Below, piece by piece: positions 25,760-32,810 of a stretch of DNA of 64,000 nt. The notes beneath the pieces were generated by a model, which was not told the origin of the DNA, made no database searches, and worked only from the letters and a program-made list of their open reading frames with translations. The DNA comes from Candidatus Micrarchaeota archaeon. Lineage in GTDB: Archaea > Micrarchaeota > Micrarchaeia > Anstonellales > Bilamarchaeaceae. How positions within the stretch are numbered: the first letter of the stretch is position 1; every line of letters begins with the position of its first letter. The position numbers were made by a program, and so were the translations under genes. The stretch is taken from the NCBI GenBank assembly GCA_038046805.1, contig JBBSVO010000003.1:19878-83877 (forward strand). Direction: 5' to 3'.

Positions 25760-26617
25760 TTAGCTTATGAGATGCGCTTCCAGCCAACAATTAAGAAGAC
25801 GGATATTTCTTCTGTACGCAGACAATAGTTCCATATTGTGTTGGCCTGCAGATTCTAATTCATATCCTTTCTTAAGAGCATTCGTCAGTGTCTTCACTTT
25901 TTCCGGGCCAAGAATCGCGAGATACCTTTCGATATTCGTATTAGCTTCCACAGTGGCTAAGGCATTTAGAGCGCTAAGAGTATAATGCATATCAGAAACG
26001 TCGATCTGCATATAAGCCAACTCTGCGCTTACCACGTTCCAATCCCCATTCTTGAATTTCTTCTTTAATGCATCAATTTCATCGTGCACACGAGAAGTAT
26101 CGATAGAAACCTGGAAAGCTCTTGTTTCTCGATATACCTCGCATCTCGACTCCAAAAAATCAAGATCCCGATTAAGAACTTCAAGCCTTTCTTCAATATC
26201 CCCTGGGACTTCCTTTGTAGGCCTCATTGTTGGAAATGTAAGAAGTTTTACGAGGTTATCAACCGTATGAGCGTCCAGCGATTTCTCTATGTTTTTATTC
26301 TTCAGATTTTCCCTGTCAACCGGATAATCTCCACCTACAAGTTTACGTATATTTTGTATTGCGCTTCGGGTTTCTCCTCCATAGGTTCCATCAACCTTGA
26401 TTTCAGAACCGGAAATTTTTCCCATTTCCACTAGTTTATTATAGAGTAATTGAAGAACTACTACCTGCTCGCCACTCATGAGTCGACCCTTAGCTGCCCC
26501 GCCAGGGCCGATGTATCCAGTCATATTATCCCGTAATTCCATGGAAAGTTCTGCCGCAGATTTCCCACCGTGGATATTAACCCATTCATCTACCTGAGAT
26601 TTTCTAATCAAAGCCAT
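25760..26617 (-). CDS. Protein with a peptidoglycan-binding (PG_binding_1-like) domain and a helical C-terminus
   Basis: GEQVVVLQLL...VDGTYGGETRSAI matches G..V..LQ..L...DG.fG..T..A. Confidence 0.6.
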   Translation of the reverse strand: MALIRKSQVDEWVNIHGGKSAAELSMELRDNMTGYIGPGGAAKGRLMSGEQVVVLQLLYNKLVEMGKISGSEIKVDGTYGGETRSAIQNIRKLVGGDYPVDRENLKNKNIEKSLDAHTVDNLVKLLTFPTMRPTKEVPGDIEERLEVLNRDLDFLESRCEVYRETRAFQVSIDTSRVHDEIDALKKKFKNGDWNVVSAELAYMQIDVSDMHYTLSALNALATVEANTNIERYLAILGPEKVKTLTNALKKGYELESAGQHNMELLSAYRRNIRLLNCWLEAHLIS

Positions 26618-26685
26618 ATTATCAACCCTTACCTGGAAAGGTATTACTTCATAACTATTATAAGTATACCCACGAAAATAGAATT

Positions 26686-27480
26686 ATGGCAGAGCCTCAA
26701 ACTACAGCAGCTAGAATCGAGATTTTAGACCTGGACAAGCAGGTTCCATGGTTGAAAGAACAGATTCCGGATGCAAAAACGCGACAACTGTTCGGAGAAT
26801 GGCTTGCAGATTTTGCAGACAGGCACGGGTGGAAAGGTGCAGATGGGAAATTGACTAAGATGACGTCTGAGCAATTATACGGCGTACTCGATAATAACCG
26901 CGGATTCTATGAAAAAGTAATGCGAGAGATGGAAAAGAACTCGACGACAGAATTCCAGGCAGGTTCACGTTTCTGGCCTAAAAAAGAGAACTTACAGAAT
27001 GTAAAGGAAACTGTCCTCGCGGCGATAGCTGTTGGTTCCACCTATGGAATTGAACCGCTCTTTATTATTACAATAGCCGGATATGAATCACAGTTTGCAA
27101 ATGTGAAAGGTATTGGCGGAACCGGAATGTGCCAGGTCAACCCAAAGAATTCGTCTCTTACTGCACTGGGGAAAGCATATGGAAGAAAAACATGGTTGGT
27201 CAAGGTGAATGAAACACTGGATAAAATGGGTATGCCACAGATAATAACACAACCAAAAGATGTGGATTTGTTTGATATTTATCAAAATGTGGAGGAAGCG
27301 TCGAGAACCATGCTGCTAAAAGCTACTCAGGGTGGTAGCGAGGTATATACTGCAATTGTGATTGGAGATTACAAACGCCTTGCTGCGTGGTATAATGGAA
27401 ATCCAAATATACGGAATGAATATGCGGAAAACGTAATGAAGTATTACGACATGCTCGCAAAACAGATGGATGGTGGGTAA
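26686..27480 (+). CDS. Lytic transglycosylase (SLT, lysozyme-like) domain protein
   Basis: IAGYESQF (catalytic Glu), GTGMCQV, D..QNV and AAWYNG motifs in SLT order. Confidence 0.7.
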   Translation: MAEPQTTAARIEILDLDKQVPWLKEQIPDAKTRQLFGEWLADFADRHGWKGADGKLTKMTSEQLYGVLDNNRGFYEKVMREMEKNSTTEFQAGSRFWPKKENLQNVKETVLAAIAVGSTYGIEPLFIITIAGYESQFANVKGIGGTGMCQVNPKNSSLTALGKAYGRKTWLVKVNETLDKMGMPQIITQPKDVDLFDIYQNVEEASRTMLLKATQGGSEVYTAIVIGDYKRLAAWYNGNPNIRNEYAENVMKYYDMLAKQMDGG

Positions 27481-27481
27481 A

Positions 27482-28069
27482 ATGACAGTTATTATAATAG
27501 ACAACGGCTCGCAATACACTCATTTGATAAAGAGAAATTGCCGCGACCTTGATTTTTACGCTGAGGTGTTGAATAATAAAACTACTACGTTCGCCGATGT
27601 TGAAAACGTGCGGAAAAAAGACAAAATAACGCACGTGATATTGAGCGGGGGGCCGAGTTCTGTTTATGCTGGAAACAACGGGATTTGTGAGGAGATCGTA
27701 CGGATGGTTTTCGACGACAGACTGAACGCGCCACTTCTTGGAATTTGCTTTGGGCATCAACTCATTGCGCACGCACTTGGCGGAAAGGTTGAGAAAGGGA
27801 AGAGTGCGGAATACGGAATTGCGAAGATAACGATTGACGATGCGGACGGAATATTTGCGGGAGTGCCGCGCGAGATAAATGCCTGGGTTTCACATTTTGA
27901 CGAGGTAAAGAAAATACCCGAAGGCTTCGTGTCATTGGCACATTCCCAAACCTGCGCGCACGAGGCAATGCGGCACAAAACGAAAAAGATATTCGGAGTG
28001 CAGTTCCATCCAGAGGTTTGGCATACGGAACATGGCGAGGAAATTTTGAGGAATTTTCTGGGGGTGTAG
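27482..28069 (+). CDS. guaAA: GMP synthase glutamine amidotransferase subunit A
   Basis: IIDNGSQY, SGGP, LGICFGHQ and QFHPEV motifs. Confidence 0.9.
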   Translation: MTVIIIDNGSQYTHLIKRNCRDLDFYAEVLNNKTTTFADVENVRKKDKITHVILSGGPSSVYAGNNGICEEIVRMVFDDRLNAPLLGICFGHQLIAHALGGKVEKGKSAEYGIAKITIDDADGIFAGVPREINAWVSHFDEVKKIPEGFVSLAHSQTCAHEAMRHKTKKIFGVQFHPEVWHTEHGEEILRNFLGV

Positions 28070-28072
28070 AAG

Positions 28073-29635
28073 ATGCCGGCTGGGATAAATGAGGCGTTTG
28101 AAACTACATTCAAGCTGATTTTTGGGGAGTGCAATGTAAAATTAGAGGAGCTGGAGGATTACCTGTCAAAATGGCATTACCCCTTGATTAAGAAAAAATC
28201 CGCTATCTCTGGAAAGGATGTTTTGATTTCGTCATTGATGTGCAAAAAAAATGCTAGATTCATTTCTTCTGATGAAATAGAATTTGACAAAAAATTTACT
28301 TTAGATATAAATTCCATAAAAGACATCGATTCAATAGTTGAAGCAATTCAAGACCGCGTGTATTATGCTGGAAATAAAACTTTTGGGAATGCAAGTTTTA
28401 TTTATGAAAGCGACAATTGCACGGATTGCAATTATGTTTATAAGTCACACAATATATTTTCCGCAAAGTATATTGGCAACTCGATATACCTACGGCATGG
28501 CAATGAGTATGCATTTGGAGCGTCGTTTTCCCTGCGCTGTAGATACGTAATTAAAGTTTCCTACGCTGATAACCTAACCAGGTGTTTTGAGACGTATATG
28601 TCCGCGAACTGCTCTGATTTATTTTTTTGCTACAACTGCAATGATTGCCAGCACTCGATGTTTTCATTTAATCAGAGGTCAAAGAGATATTGCATCGGGA
28701 ATCTCGAATTGCCCAAGGATAGATATTTCGAATTAAGAAAAAAACTTATAGAAGAAAGTCGAAACTACATAGAAAAAAACAAGAAATTCTACTCTATGTT
28801 CAGCATGCCACCATTAGAAGAAGAGGCAGGGATGTTGATGGAAAAACCACGATCACTGCAAACAACCTATAAGGGGGATTTGACCCCTATAAACAATGCA
28901 TTTGAATCAGCATCAAAAGTCATCTTCGGACAGGAAATTGGTTTGCCAGATGAATATGAAGAATTTCTTTGTGAGAGGATAAAAAAAGTAAAAACCATCA
29001 AATCGGTTTTTGGGAAAGAAGTGCACTATAATCCAATATCTTTTTTTGAAGAGATTCCAAAGGATAGAATCGTGGGCAGATATGAAGTAGAAGAAGTATC
29101 AAAATTAAATATTCGGGTGGATAATGAAGACAGTTTAGAACGCATAATGAAAAAAATAAGCAAAATAGCATTATATCAGGTAGATATGTGGGAAGGCAAT
29201 AACCAAAATATCATAAAAAGCAGCGTCATAGATCATTGTGTGAATGTATATTACGTAGGGGATTGTGCTTTTGGAAAAAACTGCGCGTATTGCACTCTTG
29301 CAGTAGAAACAGATTCCGTATTCGGATCATTCAGGGCGTCATATTCAAAATTCTGCATACGTTGCGAAAATTCGGTTAACCTTACAGCCTGTTTTGAGAT
29401 GGATTCGTGCACTAACTGCGCTAACTCAATGTTCTGCCATAACTGCGAGAACTTGGATAACTGTATGTTTTGTTTCAATACAAAAAGCAAAAGGTATGCG
29501 ATAGGTAATGTTGAAATTGGCAGGGAGAAATATATGGAAATAAGGGAAAGGATATTAGCGGAAATTGTAAGAAAACTGACAAAGGATAAAAAACTAGATA
29601 TAGATATCTACAAGTTGGGAGAACGGAGAGGCTGA
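28073..29635 (+). CDS. Cys-rich repeat protein, fused N+C modules (paralog 1)
   Basis: KDIDSI..YY.GN motif; two CxxC-rich hexad tracts, each ending FN..SKRY.IGN. Confidence 0.8.
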   Translation: MPAGINEAFETTFKLIFGECNVKLEELEDYLSKWHYPLIKKKSAISGKDVLISSLMCKKNARFISSDEIEFDKKFTLDINSIKDIDSIVEAIQDRVYYAGNKTFGNASFIYESDNCTDCNYVYKSHNIFSAKYIGNSIYLRHGNEYAFGASFSLRCRYVIKVSYADNLTRCFETYMSANCSDLFFCYNCNDCQHSMFSFNQRSKRYCIGNLELPKDRYFELRKKLIEESRNYIEKNKKFYSMFSMPPLEEEAGMLMEKPRSLQTTYKGDLTPINNAFESASKVIFGQEIGLPDEYEEFLCERIKKVKTIKSVFGKEVHYNPISFFEEIPKDRIVGRYEVEEVSKLNIRVDNEDSLERIMKKISKIALYQVDMWEGNNQNIIKSSVIDHCVNVYYVGDCAFGKNCAYCTLAVETDSVFGSFRASYSKFCIRCENSVNLTACFEMDSCTNCANSMFCHNCENLDNCMFCFNTKSKRYAIGNVEIGREKYMEIRERILAEIVRKLTKDKKLDIDIYKLGERRG

Positions 29636-29639
29636 GCAC

Positions 29640-30389
29640 ATGAACATCAACGACTCTTGGAAATCAACCTGCAAAATCATCTTTGGACAGGAAATAGGCG
29701 ACCTCAAAGATTACGAACAATTCCTCAAAAGATATACTGAACCAATAAGCAAAACCAAATCGATTCTTAGCGGAAAGGAGGTTTACTACGGAGCTCCGTA
29801 TTGTTCTAAGGCAAAATTCATTTCCATGGATGAGATTGACCAGATGAAAGTTGAGCCGATTGGGATTGATGATACAAAAGACATTGACTCACTCATGAAC
29901 GCGGCCGCGGAAAGGTTTTATTATGCCGGCAATAAGTTCGGTGGCAAGATTCAGGATGTTGTTGGCTCTGGAGACTGCTCGGATTCTTTTTTTGTCGTCG
30001 GATCACGGGAGATATACTTATCGGAATACATTGCATACGGTCAAATGCTCACTACTACCAAGTACATGTTTGGGTGCTGCTGGGGCAGTGAGGATAATTT
30101 CTGCATCAATTCAACTGAATTAGAACTTGTAAACAGGGTGTTTGAATCCACGCTTTGTGTACAAACTGCTGACGCATATTATTCATACAATTGCATAGGG
30201 TGCCAGGAGGTTATGTTCTGCTTTAACCAGAGGTCAGCAAGATACGCGATTGGGAACAGACAGATGGAGAAAACAAACTATCTTGCGCTCAAGGCCAAGC
30301 TTCTCAAGGAAATCGTGGAACTACTGAAACGGGACAAAACCGTTCCTTCCCTGATTGATGTTGCAACAGGAAAGGCGGAACGAGGATGA
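29640..30389 (+). CDS. Cys-rich repeat protein, N-module only (paralog 2a)
   Basis: SWKSTCKIIFGQEIG, KDIDSL and FYYAGN motifs. Confidence 0.8.
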   Translation: MNINDSWKSTCKIIFGQEIGDLKDYEQFLKRYTEPISKTKSILSGKEVYYGAPYCSKAKFISMDEIDQMKVEPIGIDDTKDIDSLMNAAAERFYYAGNKFGGKIQDVVGSGDCSDSFFVVGSREIYLSEYIAYGQMLTTTKYMFGCCWGSEDNFCINSTELELVNRVFESTLCVQTADAYYSYNCIGCQEVMFCFNQRSARYAIGNRQMEKTNYLALKAKLLKEIVELLKRDKTVPSLIDVATGKAERG

Positions 30390-30396
30390 TTGATTA

Positions 30397-31161
30397 ATGG
30401 CAGGCAAGGAAATAGAAAAGGCGTTTGAAGACACTACAAAAATCATATTTGGAAAGGCACTTACCGGATTGGATAAATACGAAGAATGGCTTACGACGAG
30501 AGTTACAAAAGGAAAATTACGTGGCTCATCTACCAGTAAGAAAAAGGTTTATGTCCCGACTTACGGAATGTTCCGATTCATTCCCGATGACAGGGTTGCA
30601 GATTTGGGTTCATTTATGCAACTGAGCGGATTGAAAATAGAGATTGGAGAAAACGAAACGCTTGCATCTATCTCAAAGAAAATGCCTGCGATTGGAACGT
30701 TCATAACCGAATTTGAGGATGGGACGAACCTGAATGTGGAAAGTTCGTCTATCTACAAGAATCTGGTCAACGCATATAAGATAGTGGATTGCTTTTATTC
30801 CAAAAATCTCGCATACACTTTCTTTTCTGACAAGTGTGACCACATATTCGGAGTTTCAAAAAGCATCAGGTGCAATTTTTGCGTAAATGTACACGACTCG
30901 CGGGACGTTGTGAGGTCGTTTGAAGTAGATTTCTCAAAGAACTGCGCGGATGTAATGTTCTGCCATAATGTGGATAATGTTCACAGCTCGCTATTCTGCT
31001 TCAATGCAAAGAATTTGAGGTATGCGATAGCGAATACGGTTGTTGGAAAAGAAACATATGAAAAGGCAAGGAAAATGCTGTGCGATTACATGCTCGGGCA
31101 ATTGGAGAAGACGCATAAGCTGGATTTGGATATCTATAATATAGGGTGTTGGAAGAAATGA
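30397..31161 (+). CDS. Cys-rich repeat protein, C-module only (paralog 2b)
   Basis: AFEDTTKIIFG..YEEWL, CHNVDNV and LRYAIAN..LDIY motifs. Confidence 0.8.
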   Translation: MAGKEIEKAFEDTTKIIFGKALTGLDKYEEWLTTRVTKGKLRGSSTSKKKVYVPTYGMFRFIPDDRVADLGSFMQLSGLKIEIGENETLASISKKMPAIGTFITEFEDGTNLNVESSSIYKNLVNAYKIVDCFYSKNLAYTFFSDKCDHIFGVSKSIRCNFCVNVHDSRDVVRSFEVDFSKNCADVMFCHNVDNVHSSLFCFNAKNLRYAIANTVVGKETYEKARKMLCDYMLGQLEKTHKLDLDIYNIGCWKK

Positions 31162-32810
31162 CTTCAACTGCGTACGATGGTGTAAACAAAGCATTGACGC
31201 CAGAACAAAAAAATGGCGTCAATATTTGCCAACAAGGAGTTGGCAAAGCGTGGAAAAGCGCTTGTAAGATTCTGCTCGGAGATGAAATAGGGGAACTTGA
31301 ACAGTTTGAAGATTACCTTTACCAGTATATCGGGCATATTGATGAAAAAAATTCGGCTATATCCGGCAAACCGGTGGCAGTATCCGGTTCTGATATCTGC
31401 AGCAATGGGAGAATAATAGGAAATGAAGAGATTGGAGAGTACGAACAAATACTTAAGAGCGTCAAACTGGACATAGATTCTATAAAAGACATTGAGTCTA
31501 TTCTTGAAGCAGTTGGAGAAAAACTTTATTATTCCGGGGGAATAACCCTGGGAAATTCAAAATATGTTCAAGAAACAAACAGATGCGTAGATTCTTCATT
31601 CGTATACAGGTCAATGGACGTATACGAAGGATGCAAATATGTAGCGCTTTCAGACCAGGTGCGCAAATGCGAATATGTATTTGGAGTAGGATTAACCGGT
31701 GAAAGCAGCTTCATTATACGTGGGCATGAAGTCTGGAGAGACGCCCGCTGCTTTGAGGGATTCAGGACATATAACTCATCCGACTGTTATTACGTTGCAA
31801 ACCTTGAAGGATGCAATAACTGCATGTTTTCCTTCAACCAGAGAAACAAAAGCAATTTGATCGGGAATTTACAGTTTTCAAAAGATGAGTATACGGGGAT
31901 AAAGGAAAAACTTTTGGAGGATATACGAACAATTCTCAGAGAAAGAAAAACGATACCTGGAATAGTTGATATTGTTGCCAAGACGGATGCTAAACAGGAA
32001 AAAAGCACCGAAGCTTGTATCGTAAAAACAAGGGCAACTTTCGCACCAAAAGATGTTGAAACTGCATTTCAAGAAGTGAGCCGCATTGTGCTTGGCAAGA
32101 GACTGACCAAACTTATTGATTATGAAAACTGGCTTACAAAACATTCTGGAAAGGTAATTGGAGTTAAATCACAAATCAGTGATGGAGTAGTTTATGTGCC
32201 ACCACTGGAAGCCTTTGTAGAAATAAGGAATAGTGCAATTAAAGAGGATGAAGCTCTGGAATACGGAAAAAATACAGTTGGGATTAGAGAGCTGAATGGA
32301 TTAACCCCATTAAACGCAAGAGAGCGATTGGCATGTATCAAACTTACAACCCCGGAGATAACTTTTGGGGAGAACATAGATATAACCGAATGCTCCGGGT
32401 ATGGAGTAAATACTGCGCACGCATTCCGCGGGTCGTTTATCTATGCAGACAAATGCGTTGCGTATTCCTATTTCATAAGAAATTCCGAATACATTTTCGG
32501 CTCTTCCCTGATTTTCCTGAGCAAATACTGCATAAATTGCTATCATTCCCAGAACCTTACCCGTTGCTTTGAAGTGAGCGACTCAACAAACTGCAGTGAC
32601 TGCTATTTTTGCCATAATTGCGAGAGCTTGTCAAACTGTATGTTTTGTTTTAATACGAAATCCAAGCGCTATGCAATAGCAAATGTTGAAATTGGACCAG
32701 AAGCATTTGGCAGAATAAAAAAGCTTGTCCTGGATGACCTGACAAAGAGGATAGAGGCGAACAAAGGATTAGATATTGACATTTACAATATCGGATGCCA
32801 AAAGAAATAG
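31158..32810 (+). CDS. Cys-rich repeat protein, fused N+C modules (paralog 3)
   Basis: Same two modules; ATGA overlap with the previous stop codon. Confidence 0.8.
   Translation: MTSTAYDGVNKALTPEQKNGVNICQQGVGKAWKSACKILLGDEIGELEQFEDYLYQYIGHIDEKNSAISGKPVAVSGSDICSNGRIIGNEEIGEYEQILKSVKLDIDSIKDIESILEAVGEKLYYSGGITLGNSKYVQETNRCVDSSFVYRSMDVYEGCKYVALSDQVRKCEYVFGVGLTGESSFIIRGHEVWRDARCFEGFRTYNSSDCYYVANLEGCNNCMFSFNQRNKSNLIGNLQFSKDEYTGIKEKLLEDIRTILRERKTIPGIVDIVAKTDAKQEKSTEACIVKTRATFAPKDVETAFQEVSRIVLGKRLTKLIDYENWLTKHSGKVIGVKSQISDGVVYVPPLEAFVEIRNSAIKEDEALEYGKNTVGIRELNGLTPLNARERLACIKLTTPEITFGENIDITECSGYGVNTAHAFRGSFIYADKCVAYSYFIRNSEYIFGSSLIFLSKYCINCYHSQNLTRCFEVSDSTNCSDCYFCHNCESLSNCMFCFNTKSKRYAIANVEIGPEAFGRIKKLVLDDLTKRIEANKGLDIDIYNIGCQKK

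Follow-up and report, generated by a model that had tools for sequence, protein, structure and literature searches.

A putative split binder-plus-cutter gene pair of the lytic transglycosylase superfamily among core genes of a Micrarchaeota archaeon

A central question still open for about half of archaeal diversity is how DPANN archaea choose their partners and breach them; that some of these organisms target bacteria is hinted at in their genomes mainly by murein-cutting enzymes. We analyzed a stretch of 64,000 nucleotides (nt) from a DPANN archaeon of the phylum Micrarchaeota (the window; G000:C3:19878-83877, contig JBBSVO010000003.1 of assembly GCA_038046805.1), in which two divergent open reading frames (ORFs) lie between rpoH and guaA. 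An earlier note, made from the letters alone, had read one of them as a gene for an SLT-type lytic transglycosylase and the other as a gene for a protein with a PG_binding_1-like motif, together forming a co-regulated two-part module. Both ORFs are present as described, the PG-binding-like gene at 25760..26617 on the minus strand (285 amino acids, aa) and the SLT-like gene at 26686..27480 on the plus strand (264 aa, with the stop codon ending at 27480), 68 bp apart. What would such a pair do in this archaeon? The locus presents a paradox: the enzymes of a whole clade are apparently active predicted wall-cutters with binding partners, yet they lack export signals and their genes lie among core genes. 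From the comparisons below, the two domain identities, SLT-like and PG_binding_1-like, are very likely right. That the pair forms a split binder-plus-cutter, glycan-cleaving module of the lysozyme/lytic-transglycosylase superfamily we regard as an evenly balanced proposition.

A diverged SLT-like domain and a PG_binding_1-like partner

The SLT-like protein consists of an N-terminal region of ~100 aa without assigned function followed by a predicted catalytic domain (residues ~104-260; 26995..27465, plus strand), which has a ~30-aa insertion after motif II. Three motifs suggest the assignment: GYESQF (Glu134-Ser135, with the codon of the predicted catalytic Glu134 at 27085-27087), GGTGMCQV (Gly147 and Gln150, the latter encoded at 27133-27135), and WYNGN (Tyr236-Asn237-Gly238, 27391-27399). 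Such motifs alone are weak evidence, and the family-level data raise them well above chance. Glu134, Gly147, Gln150, Lys212, Tyr236 and Asn237 are invariant in all 17 relatives, which share 16-38% identity with the window protein. Across the 17 family sequences, Gly238 and Tyr246 are nearly invariant, and the residue after Glu134 is S, T or N. No second acidic catalytic residue is conserved in the family alignment.

The decisive test was a comparison by hhalign of the 17-sequence family profile with canonical SLT domains of the same phylum, taken from domains that score 74-111 bits to PF01464. This gave a probability of 96.5% (E 7.4e-10, 105 columns), with E-S, G-x-x-Q, Y-N-G and the final Tyr in the same register (ES/GLMQ/YNxG/Y in the canonical domains). 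On account of this alignment, the domain is probably a genuine, strongly diverged and active family-1 SLT/GH23 domain. Profile searches of the PDB returned EtgA, MltC, EmtA, c-type and g-type lysozymes, a GH23 chitinase and phiKZ gp144; each match is marginal (E 5e-4 to 0.3), while the top of the list is made up exclusively of the lysozyme superfamily, with the catalytic Glu aligned. These matches appeared only after distant relatives had been added, as a profile of three orthologs found nothing in the PDB. Six of the 17 family members also match Pfam SLT at E<0.01.

The PG-binding-like protein is composed of an N-terminal region, a PG_binding_1-like segment (residues ~48-95, SGEQVVVLQLLYNKLVEMGKISGSEIKVDGTYGGETRSAIQNIRKLVG; 26333..26476, minus strand) and a long helical C-terminal part without assigned function. 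The identity of the segment is suggested mainly by relatives in which the two functions are joined: in P0009, P0012 and an ORF of the genome G091, PG_binding_1 precedes the same SLT-like domain in a single polypeptide. The G091 ORF has a bona fide PG_binding_1 domain (41.8 bits to PF01471, E 1.2e-10). Residues 55-94 of the window protein align by BLASTP with the first PG-binding repeat of P0009 (38% identity over 40 aa, E 6e-5), and hhalign against the repeats of all three fusions, a reference alignment of three sequences only, gave a probability of 92.5% (E 4.7e-7, 65 columns). A PDB search with the isolated segment had no match. The fusions occur in at least two branches of the family tree, one holding P0009 and the G091 ORF (support 95/86) and the other P0012. 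Since these relatives fuse the same SLT-like domain to PG_binding_1 repeats, the window pair is best read, at the level of sequence, as the split form of a binder-plus-cutter enzyme. Modular endolysins and autolysins are built on this plan.

For the remaining 190 residues of the PG-binding-like protein we detected no relative, the N-terminal extensions of longer family members included. We also considered a gene fission in which the C-terminal helical part would correspond to the long N-terminal extensions of the relatives; this idea was dropped as unsupported, with hhalign matching the PG-binding segment only. The PG-binding-like protein occurs as a separate gene in the genus of the window organism only. 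Upstream of the gene for P0006, the closest relative outside the genus, a run of N masks the position at which a partner gene would be expected (L007 4836-6001).

How widespread is the SLT-like family? Word-based homolog searches retrieved close orthologs only, and an exhaustive HMMER search of 1.84 billion representative proteins gave just nine matches, among them P0007, which passes the Pfam SLT cut-off (27.4 bits), and P0011, a typical SLT protein with a signal peptide (48.7 bits). By six-frame search the divergent subfamily was found in 17 of 301 genomes of the phylum, mostly in one order, and it is absent from most genomes of the window organism's own family. Canonical SLT domains are present in 80 of the 301 genomes and in 49 of 129 genera, some genomes having several copies; the ORFs that encode them reach ~2,700 aa (loci L039-L050). 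A branch with 99/97 support divides the divergent family from the canonical domains in a maximum-likelihood tree, and the subfamily forms a well-supported clade confined to this archaeal phylum. The earlier note's surprise at such genes in an archaeon was thus overstated, given the canonical domains in 80 of 301 genomes and existing reports for DPANN archaea, Micrarchaeota included. Lytic transglycosylases in these organisms are of a kind already known; new here are the cryptic subfamily, the split arrangement of binder and cutter genes and the clade-wide absence of export signals. Because the subfamily is labelled hypothetical in databases and lies below Pfam cut-offs, surveys based on Pfam or CAZy undercount such enzymes, and for Micrarchaeota the cryptic subfamily adds a further set of genomes to the 80 with canonical SLT.

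A conserved locus among archaeal core genes

The genome from which the window derives (1.2 Mb in 16 contigs) is 86% complete and uncontaminated, and the window carries archaeal core genes, namely a ribosomal protein cluster, rpoA, a split rpoB and rpoH, the last lying beyond the PG-binding-like gene. The order rpoH, PG-binding-like gene, SLT-like gene and guaAA is common to six independent assemblies (among them L001, L002, L005 and L006), and the close orthologs come from groundwater metagenomes. SLT-like orthologs share 77-81% identity, and the PG-binding-like ortholog P0004 shares 69%. Against the L001 orthologs (Nei-Gojobori, dS ~0.8-0.9), dN/dS is 0.14 for the SLT-like gene and 0.24 for the PG-binding-like gene, compared with 0.09 for guaAA and 0.14 for rpoH. 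On the strength of the orthologs, the kept gene order and the low dN/dS, both ORFs are real genes under purifying selection. The GC content of both equals that of their surroundings. The locus is not chimeric, not viral and not a recent acquisition, so that the two outcomes that the earlier note had named as fatal for its reading, a chimeric or a viral contig, do not apply, with archaeal flanks and conserved synteny on both counts. In the JGI contig L005, the PG-binding-like ortholog (477-1246) is broken into a 244-aa ORF and a 5´ fragment, overlapping ORFs that differ in frame; this reflects either an assembly error or a frameshifted copy.

The divergent spacer (26618..26685, 68 bp) contains a TATA-like element, TATTATAA (26656-26663), ~26 nt upstream of the SLT-like ATG. 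Judged by archaeal promoter architecture this is a putative promoter element, and its spacing points to a transcript with no leader or almost none. Hardly any change separates the window, L001 and L005 in the 45 nt before the SLT-like ATG, despite a dS of ~0.8-0.9 in the flanking genes, whereas the half of the spacer adjoining the PG-binding-like gene has a 36-nt indel. Since the conserved part adjoins the SLT-like gene only and the other half carries the indel, co-regulation of the pair is possible, and this part of the earlier proposal stands at that strength; the other part, that the two genes belong to one module, gained from the fusions in relatives and from the retention of the pair in six assemblies.

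The start codons bear on the question of export. For the SLT-like gene there is no upstream in-frame start codon, so no hidden signal peptide. A candidate had been offered by the 300-aa gene call of the ortholog P0002 and was rejected: its 37-aa hydrophobic extension (L001 8001-8111; compare window 26618-26685) is a translation of the putative AT-rich promoter, is out of frame or start-less in the window, and is absent from P0003. The database gene call for P0002 begins 37 codons too early, and the false hydrophobic N-terminus could be mistaken for a signal peptide.

Downstream, guaAA (GMP synthase glutamine amidotransferase subunit; 27482..28069, plus strand; TIGR00888 2.3e-65, PRK00758 1.9e-64) has its ATG at 27482, 1 nt past the SLT-like stop as previously noted and in agreement with the start of the TIGR00888 and PRK00758 alignments. 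An alternative ATG at 27470, which would give an 11-nt overlap with the SLT-like gene, is also possible. guaAA is probably co-transcribed with the SLT-like gene and is context, outside the module. Directly 3´ of guaAA lies an array of Cys-rich proteins without Pfam or NCBIfam match (window 28073-32810), for which no link to the SLT/PG-binding pair was seen; in L001, a TPR protein separates guaAA from the Cys-rich protein genes.

In other genera the surroundings of the subfamily differ, and no neighbourhood was found to be conserved across genera. SLT-like genes are divergent from ftsZ (Tubulin and FtsZ_C domains) in G289 and G176, a single copy lies between scpA-scpB and smc in G259 (L037), and L7Ae adjoins the gene in G091. 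Both G289 (L033 6077-9360) and G176 (L034 408-3703) have two genes of the divergent subfamily close together on one strand; the copies carry N-terminal extensions of 360-390 aa without recognised fold, and in G289 a 318-aa ORF separates the two, of which the second is short. In G001 (L036 4144-7665) and G190 (L038 6881-10444), the SLT-like gene overlaps two neighbours assigned by Pfam, a phosphohexomutase gene on its upstream side and a gene for an NAD-dependent sugar epimerase on its downstream side. The mutase is of the phosphoglucomutase/phosphomannomutase family, and beyond it lies a small divergent gene whose product begins with GQAAAEYL and a hydrophobic helix, similar to an archaeal class III (pilin-type) signal. 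This context hints at a possible tie between the enzyme and amino-sugar metabolism or a surface filament.

Possible substrates, delivery and rival explanations

If the domain assignments hold, the 264-aa cutter would be a diverged family-1 SLT enzyme (GH23) with a single catalytic glutamate (Glu134) in the E-S motif followed by G-x-x-Q and Y-N-G, and the 285-aa binder would present a PG_binding_1-like three-helix segment followed by a helical, rod-like part. Most likely, the binder would dock on a MurNAc-GlcNAc-type glycan strand, in which the SLT-like domain would cut the beta-1,4 bond by a single-Glu, substrate-assisted route. The substrate would most probably be a bacterial cell wall met by this host-dependent archaeon, be it that of a host, a prey, a competitor or debris; a bacterial wall seems the most likely target in view of the motif set, of the association with PG_binding_1 and of the lack of any sign that the organism makes murein. 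Taken as a claim of its own, bacterial murein as the target falls slightly short of an even chance. Given that no subfamily member has a Sec, Tat or pilin-type signal, the proteins would reach the substrate by a non-classical route, such as a cell-cell contact structure, vesicles or lysis. Activity, substrate, cooperation of the two proteins and export are all what we infer from these comparisons.

With regard to the organism's own murein, a whole-genome search for the pathway gave a single Mur_ligase_M match and no canonical SLT (PF01464). The protein with that match (L031 1054-2280, G000:C7) is FolC-like by the motifs GTNGKGS...SPHL, as read from the sequence without a family search; the adjacent gene encodes a secreted protein of 431 aa that has a signal peptide and an HExxH-like motif. 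Murein synthesis or recycling by the archaeon itself was therefore rejected as far as an 86%-complete genome allows.

Export was assessed by hydropathy scan. In agreement with the earlier note, neither window protein has an N-terminal hydrophobic segment; the maximum KD19 of the PG-binding-like protein is 0.91, and in members of the SLT-like subfamily the most hydrophobic stretch is always the buried helix before the catalytic Glu. The bacterial-type control P0011 showed a clear signal peptide in the same scan. About half of eleven canonical SLT proteins of the phylum had an N-terminal hydrophobic segment and about half did not. Signal-less forms are not rare more generally, since a recognised signal peptide is present in only 32% of archaeal modular hydrolases (PMC12352652).

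Several results weigh against the proposal that the pair is a binder-plus-cutter module acting on bacterial walls. HMMER comparison with PF01464 and PF01471, which the earlier note had suggested, placed both window proteins below the cut-offs, and only relatives reach them: the SLT-like protein scores 13.3 bits to SLT (E 0.061; gathering cut-off 21.3), next to a Glucosaminidase match that is likewise below cut-off (E 0.13), and the whole PG-binding-like protein matches PG_binding_3 at E 0.035 and PG_binding_1 at E 0.17. With the isolated segment these values become 0.007 and 0.054, still below cut-off, and the PG_binding_1 score of 12.6-14.1 bits covers profile positions 10-35 of 57 only and does not reach the gathering cut-off of 23 bits. 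The AlphaFold2 models are of low confidence (SLT-like protein, pLDDT 40, from an alignment of three close orthologs; PG-binding-like protein, all-helical, pLDDT 47, from an alignment of two), so the lysozyme-like fold is predicted from profiles only. Among the 16 family members with a sound start, none showed an N-terminal hydrophobic segment or a membrane helix. A contractile injection system as the means of delivery was considered and found unsupported, as no Phage_sheath_1 was found in the 14 carrier genomes; neither signals nor an injection sheath would thus account for extracellular action. The housekeeping neighbourhoods fit an internal or self-directed role as well as an attack role. 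In the window genome, murein-recycling genes were represented by no Amidase_2 and, for AnmK, by a 19-bit partial match only, in another kinase-like ORF; these absences are provisional at 86% completeness. To these points belong two that favour a different substrate: GH23 includes chitinolytic enzymes (PDB 3w6b/3w6e are among the profile matches), and the hosts known for Micrarchaeota in culture are Thermoplasmatales archaea, which have no wall (PMC5864196).

A different substrate would be a non-murein polymer of beta-1,4-linked N-acetylhexosamine, whether chitin-like material, the envelope or N-glycans of an archaeal host, or the organism's own glycan, with the PG_binding_1-like domain serving as a general glycan- or protein-docking module. 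We consider this unlikely, though not far-fetched. The amino-sugar and nucleotide-sugar context in G001 and G190 speaks for it, as do matches of PG_binding_1 in murein-free archaeal genomes of the control set. Yet E-S, G-x-x-Q and Y-N-G without a second conserved acid are the set of family-1 murein lytic transglycosylases, the best PDB matches (EtgA, MltC and EmtA) are murein enzymes, and fusion to PG_binding_1 is a classic murein-hydrolase architecture. The same genes might instead serve a housekeeping role directed at the cell itself, inside it or at its division site, for example by reshaping an undescribed glycan of the envelope or the cytoplasm. The genes always lie in the core genome (RNA polymerase genes and guaA here; ftsZ in G289 and G176; scpAB-smc in G259), export signals are absent subfamily-wide and purifying selection is similar to that on neighbouring core genes. 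A patchy distribution in 17 of 301 genomes would, however, be unexpected for an essential division factor, murein synthesis genes were not found in the window genome, and the adjacency to division genes may be chance because the neighbourhoods differ between genera; we find this role distinctly improbable.

Divergent regulator-target pairs are common, and the PG-binding-like protein could bind no glycan and instead control the SLT-like gene as a small helical regulator or DNA-binding protein, a reading to which its sub-threshold PG_binding_1 match and a weak HTH_72 match in an ortholog segment (E 0.12) lend something. It is nonetheless very improbable, as the hhalign match links the protein to PG_binding repeats that relatives fuse to the same catalytic domain, no HTH family match is significant, and the conserved part of the spacer adjoins the SLT-like gene only. 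Barely credible is an origin as a remnant or domesticated viral endolysin cassette, or as a chimeric or contaminant bacterial fragment. A signal-less combination of PG_binding_1 with an SLT-type domain is indeed the architecture of phiKZ gp144-type endolysins, gp144 (3bkh, 9xps) is a weak PDB match, and the PG-binding regions of the fused relatives match endolysin PHROGs. Neither window protein has a PHROG match, however, or a tblastn match in 50,697 phage records, and no holin, capsid or integrase gene lies nearby in the window, in keeping with the earlier remark that phage genes are absent; core-gene flanks, the synteny in six assemblies, an unremarkable GC content and a clade confined to one archaeal phylum point the same way.

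For the binder-plus-cutter module, a more specific scenario can be drawn, which we think quite unlikely: a Micrarchaeota order would have retained the signal-less, endolysin-like proteins in its core genome by vertical descent and would use them to open a bacterial partner's sacculus, handing them over by way of the DPANN cell-cell contact apparatus or releasing them by a dedicated non-Sec route. If true, this would amount to genetic evidence for a life of these groundwater Micrarchaeota on bacteria and not on wall-less archaea, and it would imply a delivery mechanism not yet described in archaea. More broadly, an enzyme that cuts bacterial sacculi would support interactions across domains for Micrarchaeota, for which wall-less archaea are the only hosts known, while one that cuts something else would point to an unknown archaeal glycan.

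Comparison with known systems

Among the known systems nearest to the pair are the bacterial family-1 lytic transglycosylases (PF01464, GH23), including EtgA (4xp8/8urn), EmtA/MltE (2y8p/6ghz), MltC (4c5f) and Slt70. The window protein shares their motif order (E-S, with the predicted catalytic Glu where a hydrophobic helix ends, G-x-x-Q, Y-N-G and a last Tyr) and, like them, has a domain of ~150 aa, predicted to be helical, with no second conserved acidic residue. Unlike these enzymes, it lies below the Pfam cut-off, lacks a signal peptide or lipobox, and is encoded by an archaeon without a murein pathway; Lys212 is invariant in its family, an N-terminal region of ~100 aa is private to it, and ~30 aa are inserted after motif II.

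Modular endolysins of the phiKZ gp144 type (3bkh, 9xps; also 7rum), from phages that infect Gram-negative bacteria, combine the same two parts, a PG_binding_1-like binder and an SLT/lysozyme-type cutter, likewise without a signal peptide. The domain order of gp144, with PG_binding_1 at the N-terminus and the lytic transglycosylase at the C-terminus, is copied exactly by P0009, the G091 ORF and P0012. In the window, by contrast, the parts are two separate divergent genes in core-genome synteny with no holin or viral gene, and the likeness in sequence to gp144-type endolysins is weak (E 0.25-0.5).

Among archaea, lytic transglycosylase genes were noted in DPANN genomes already in 2013-2015. Murein-type enzymes have since been reported repeatedly in this group (PMC8204110, PMC9723730, PMC10936187), including in three Micrarchaeota genomes in 2018 (PMC5864196), and the proteins with such domains have been interpreted as anti-bacterial tools (PMC8204110, PMC9723730, PMC5864196). 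The published examples (fam00969 of Woesearchaeota/Pacearchaeota, PMC8204110; GH23 of Woesearchaeota, PMC9723730; Micrarchaeota, PMC5864196) resemble the window protein in having an SLT-type domain in host-dependent, murein-free archaea with small genomes, and they raise the same question of whether bacteria are attacked or attached to. They differ in that standard HMMs recognise them, in their often very large size (as much as 3,000 aa) and in a predicted extracellular location or Sec export, whereas the window subfamily is small (264 aa for the window protein), labelled hypothetical, devoid of export signals and placed in a separate clade (99/97).

Experimental precedent for archaeal enzymes acting on bacterial walls comes from Woldo and Danwoldo of Halogranum salarium, as archaeal hydrolases bearing PG_binding_1 have been shown to kill bacteria (PMC12352652). 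These proteins likewise combine an archaeal wall-hydrolase domain with PG_binding_1-type modules, but they have Tat signal peptides, use M23-type and glucosaminidase catalytic domains, are single polypeptides and belong to a free-living haloarchaeon (PMC12352652).

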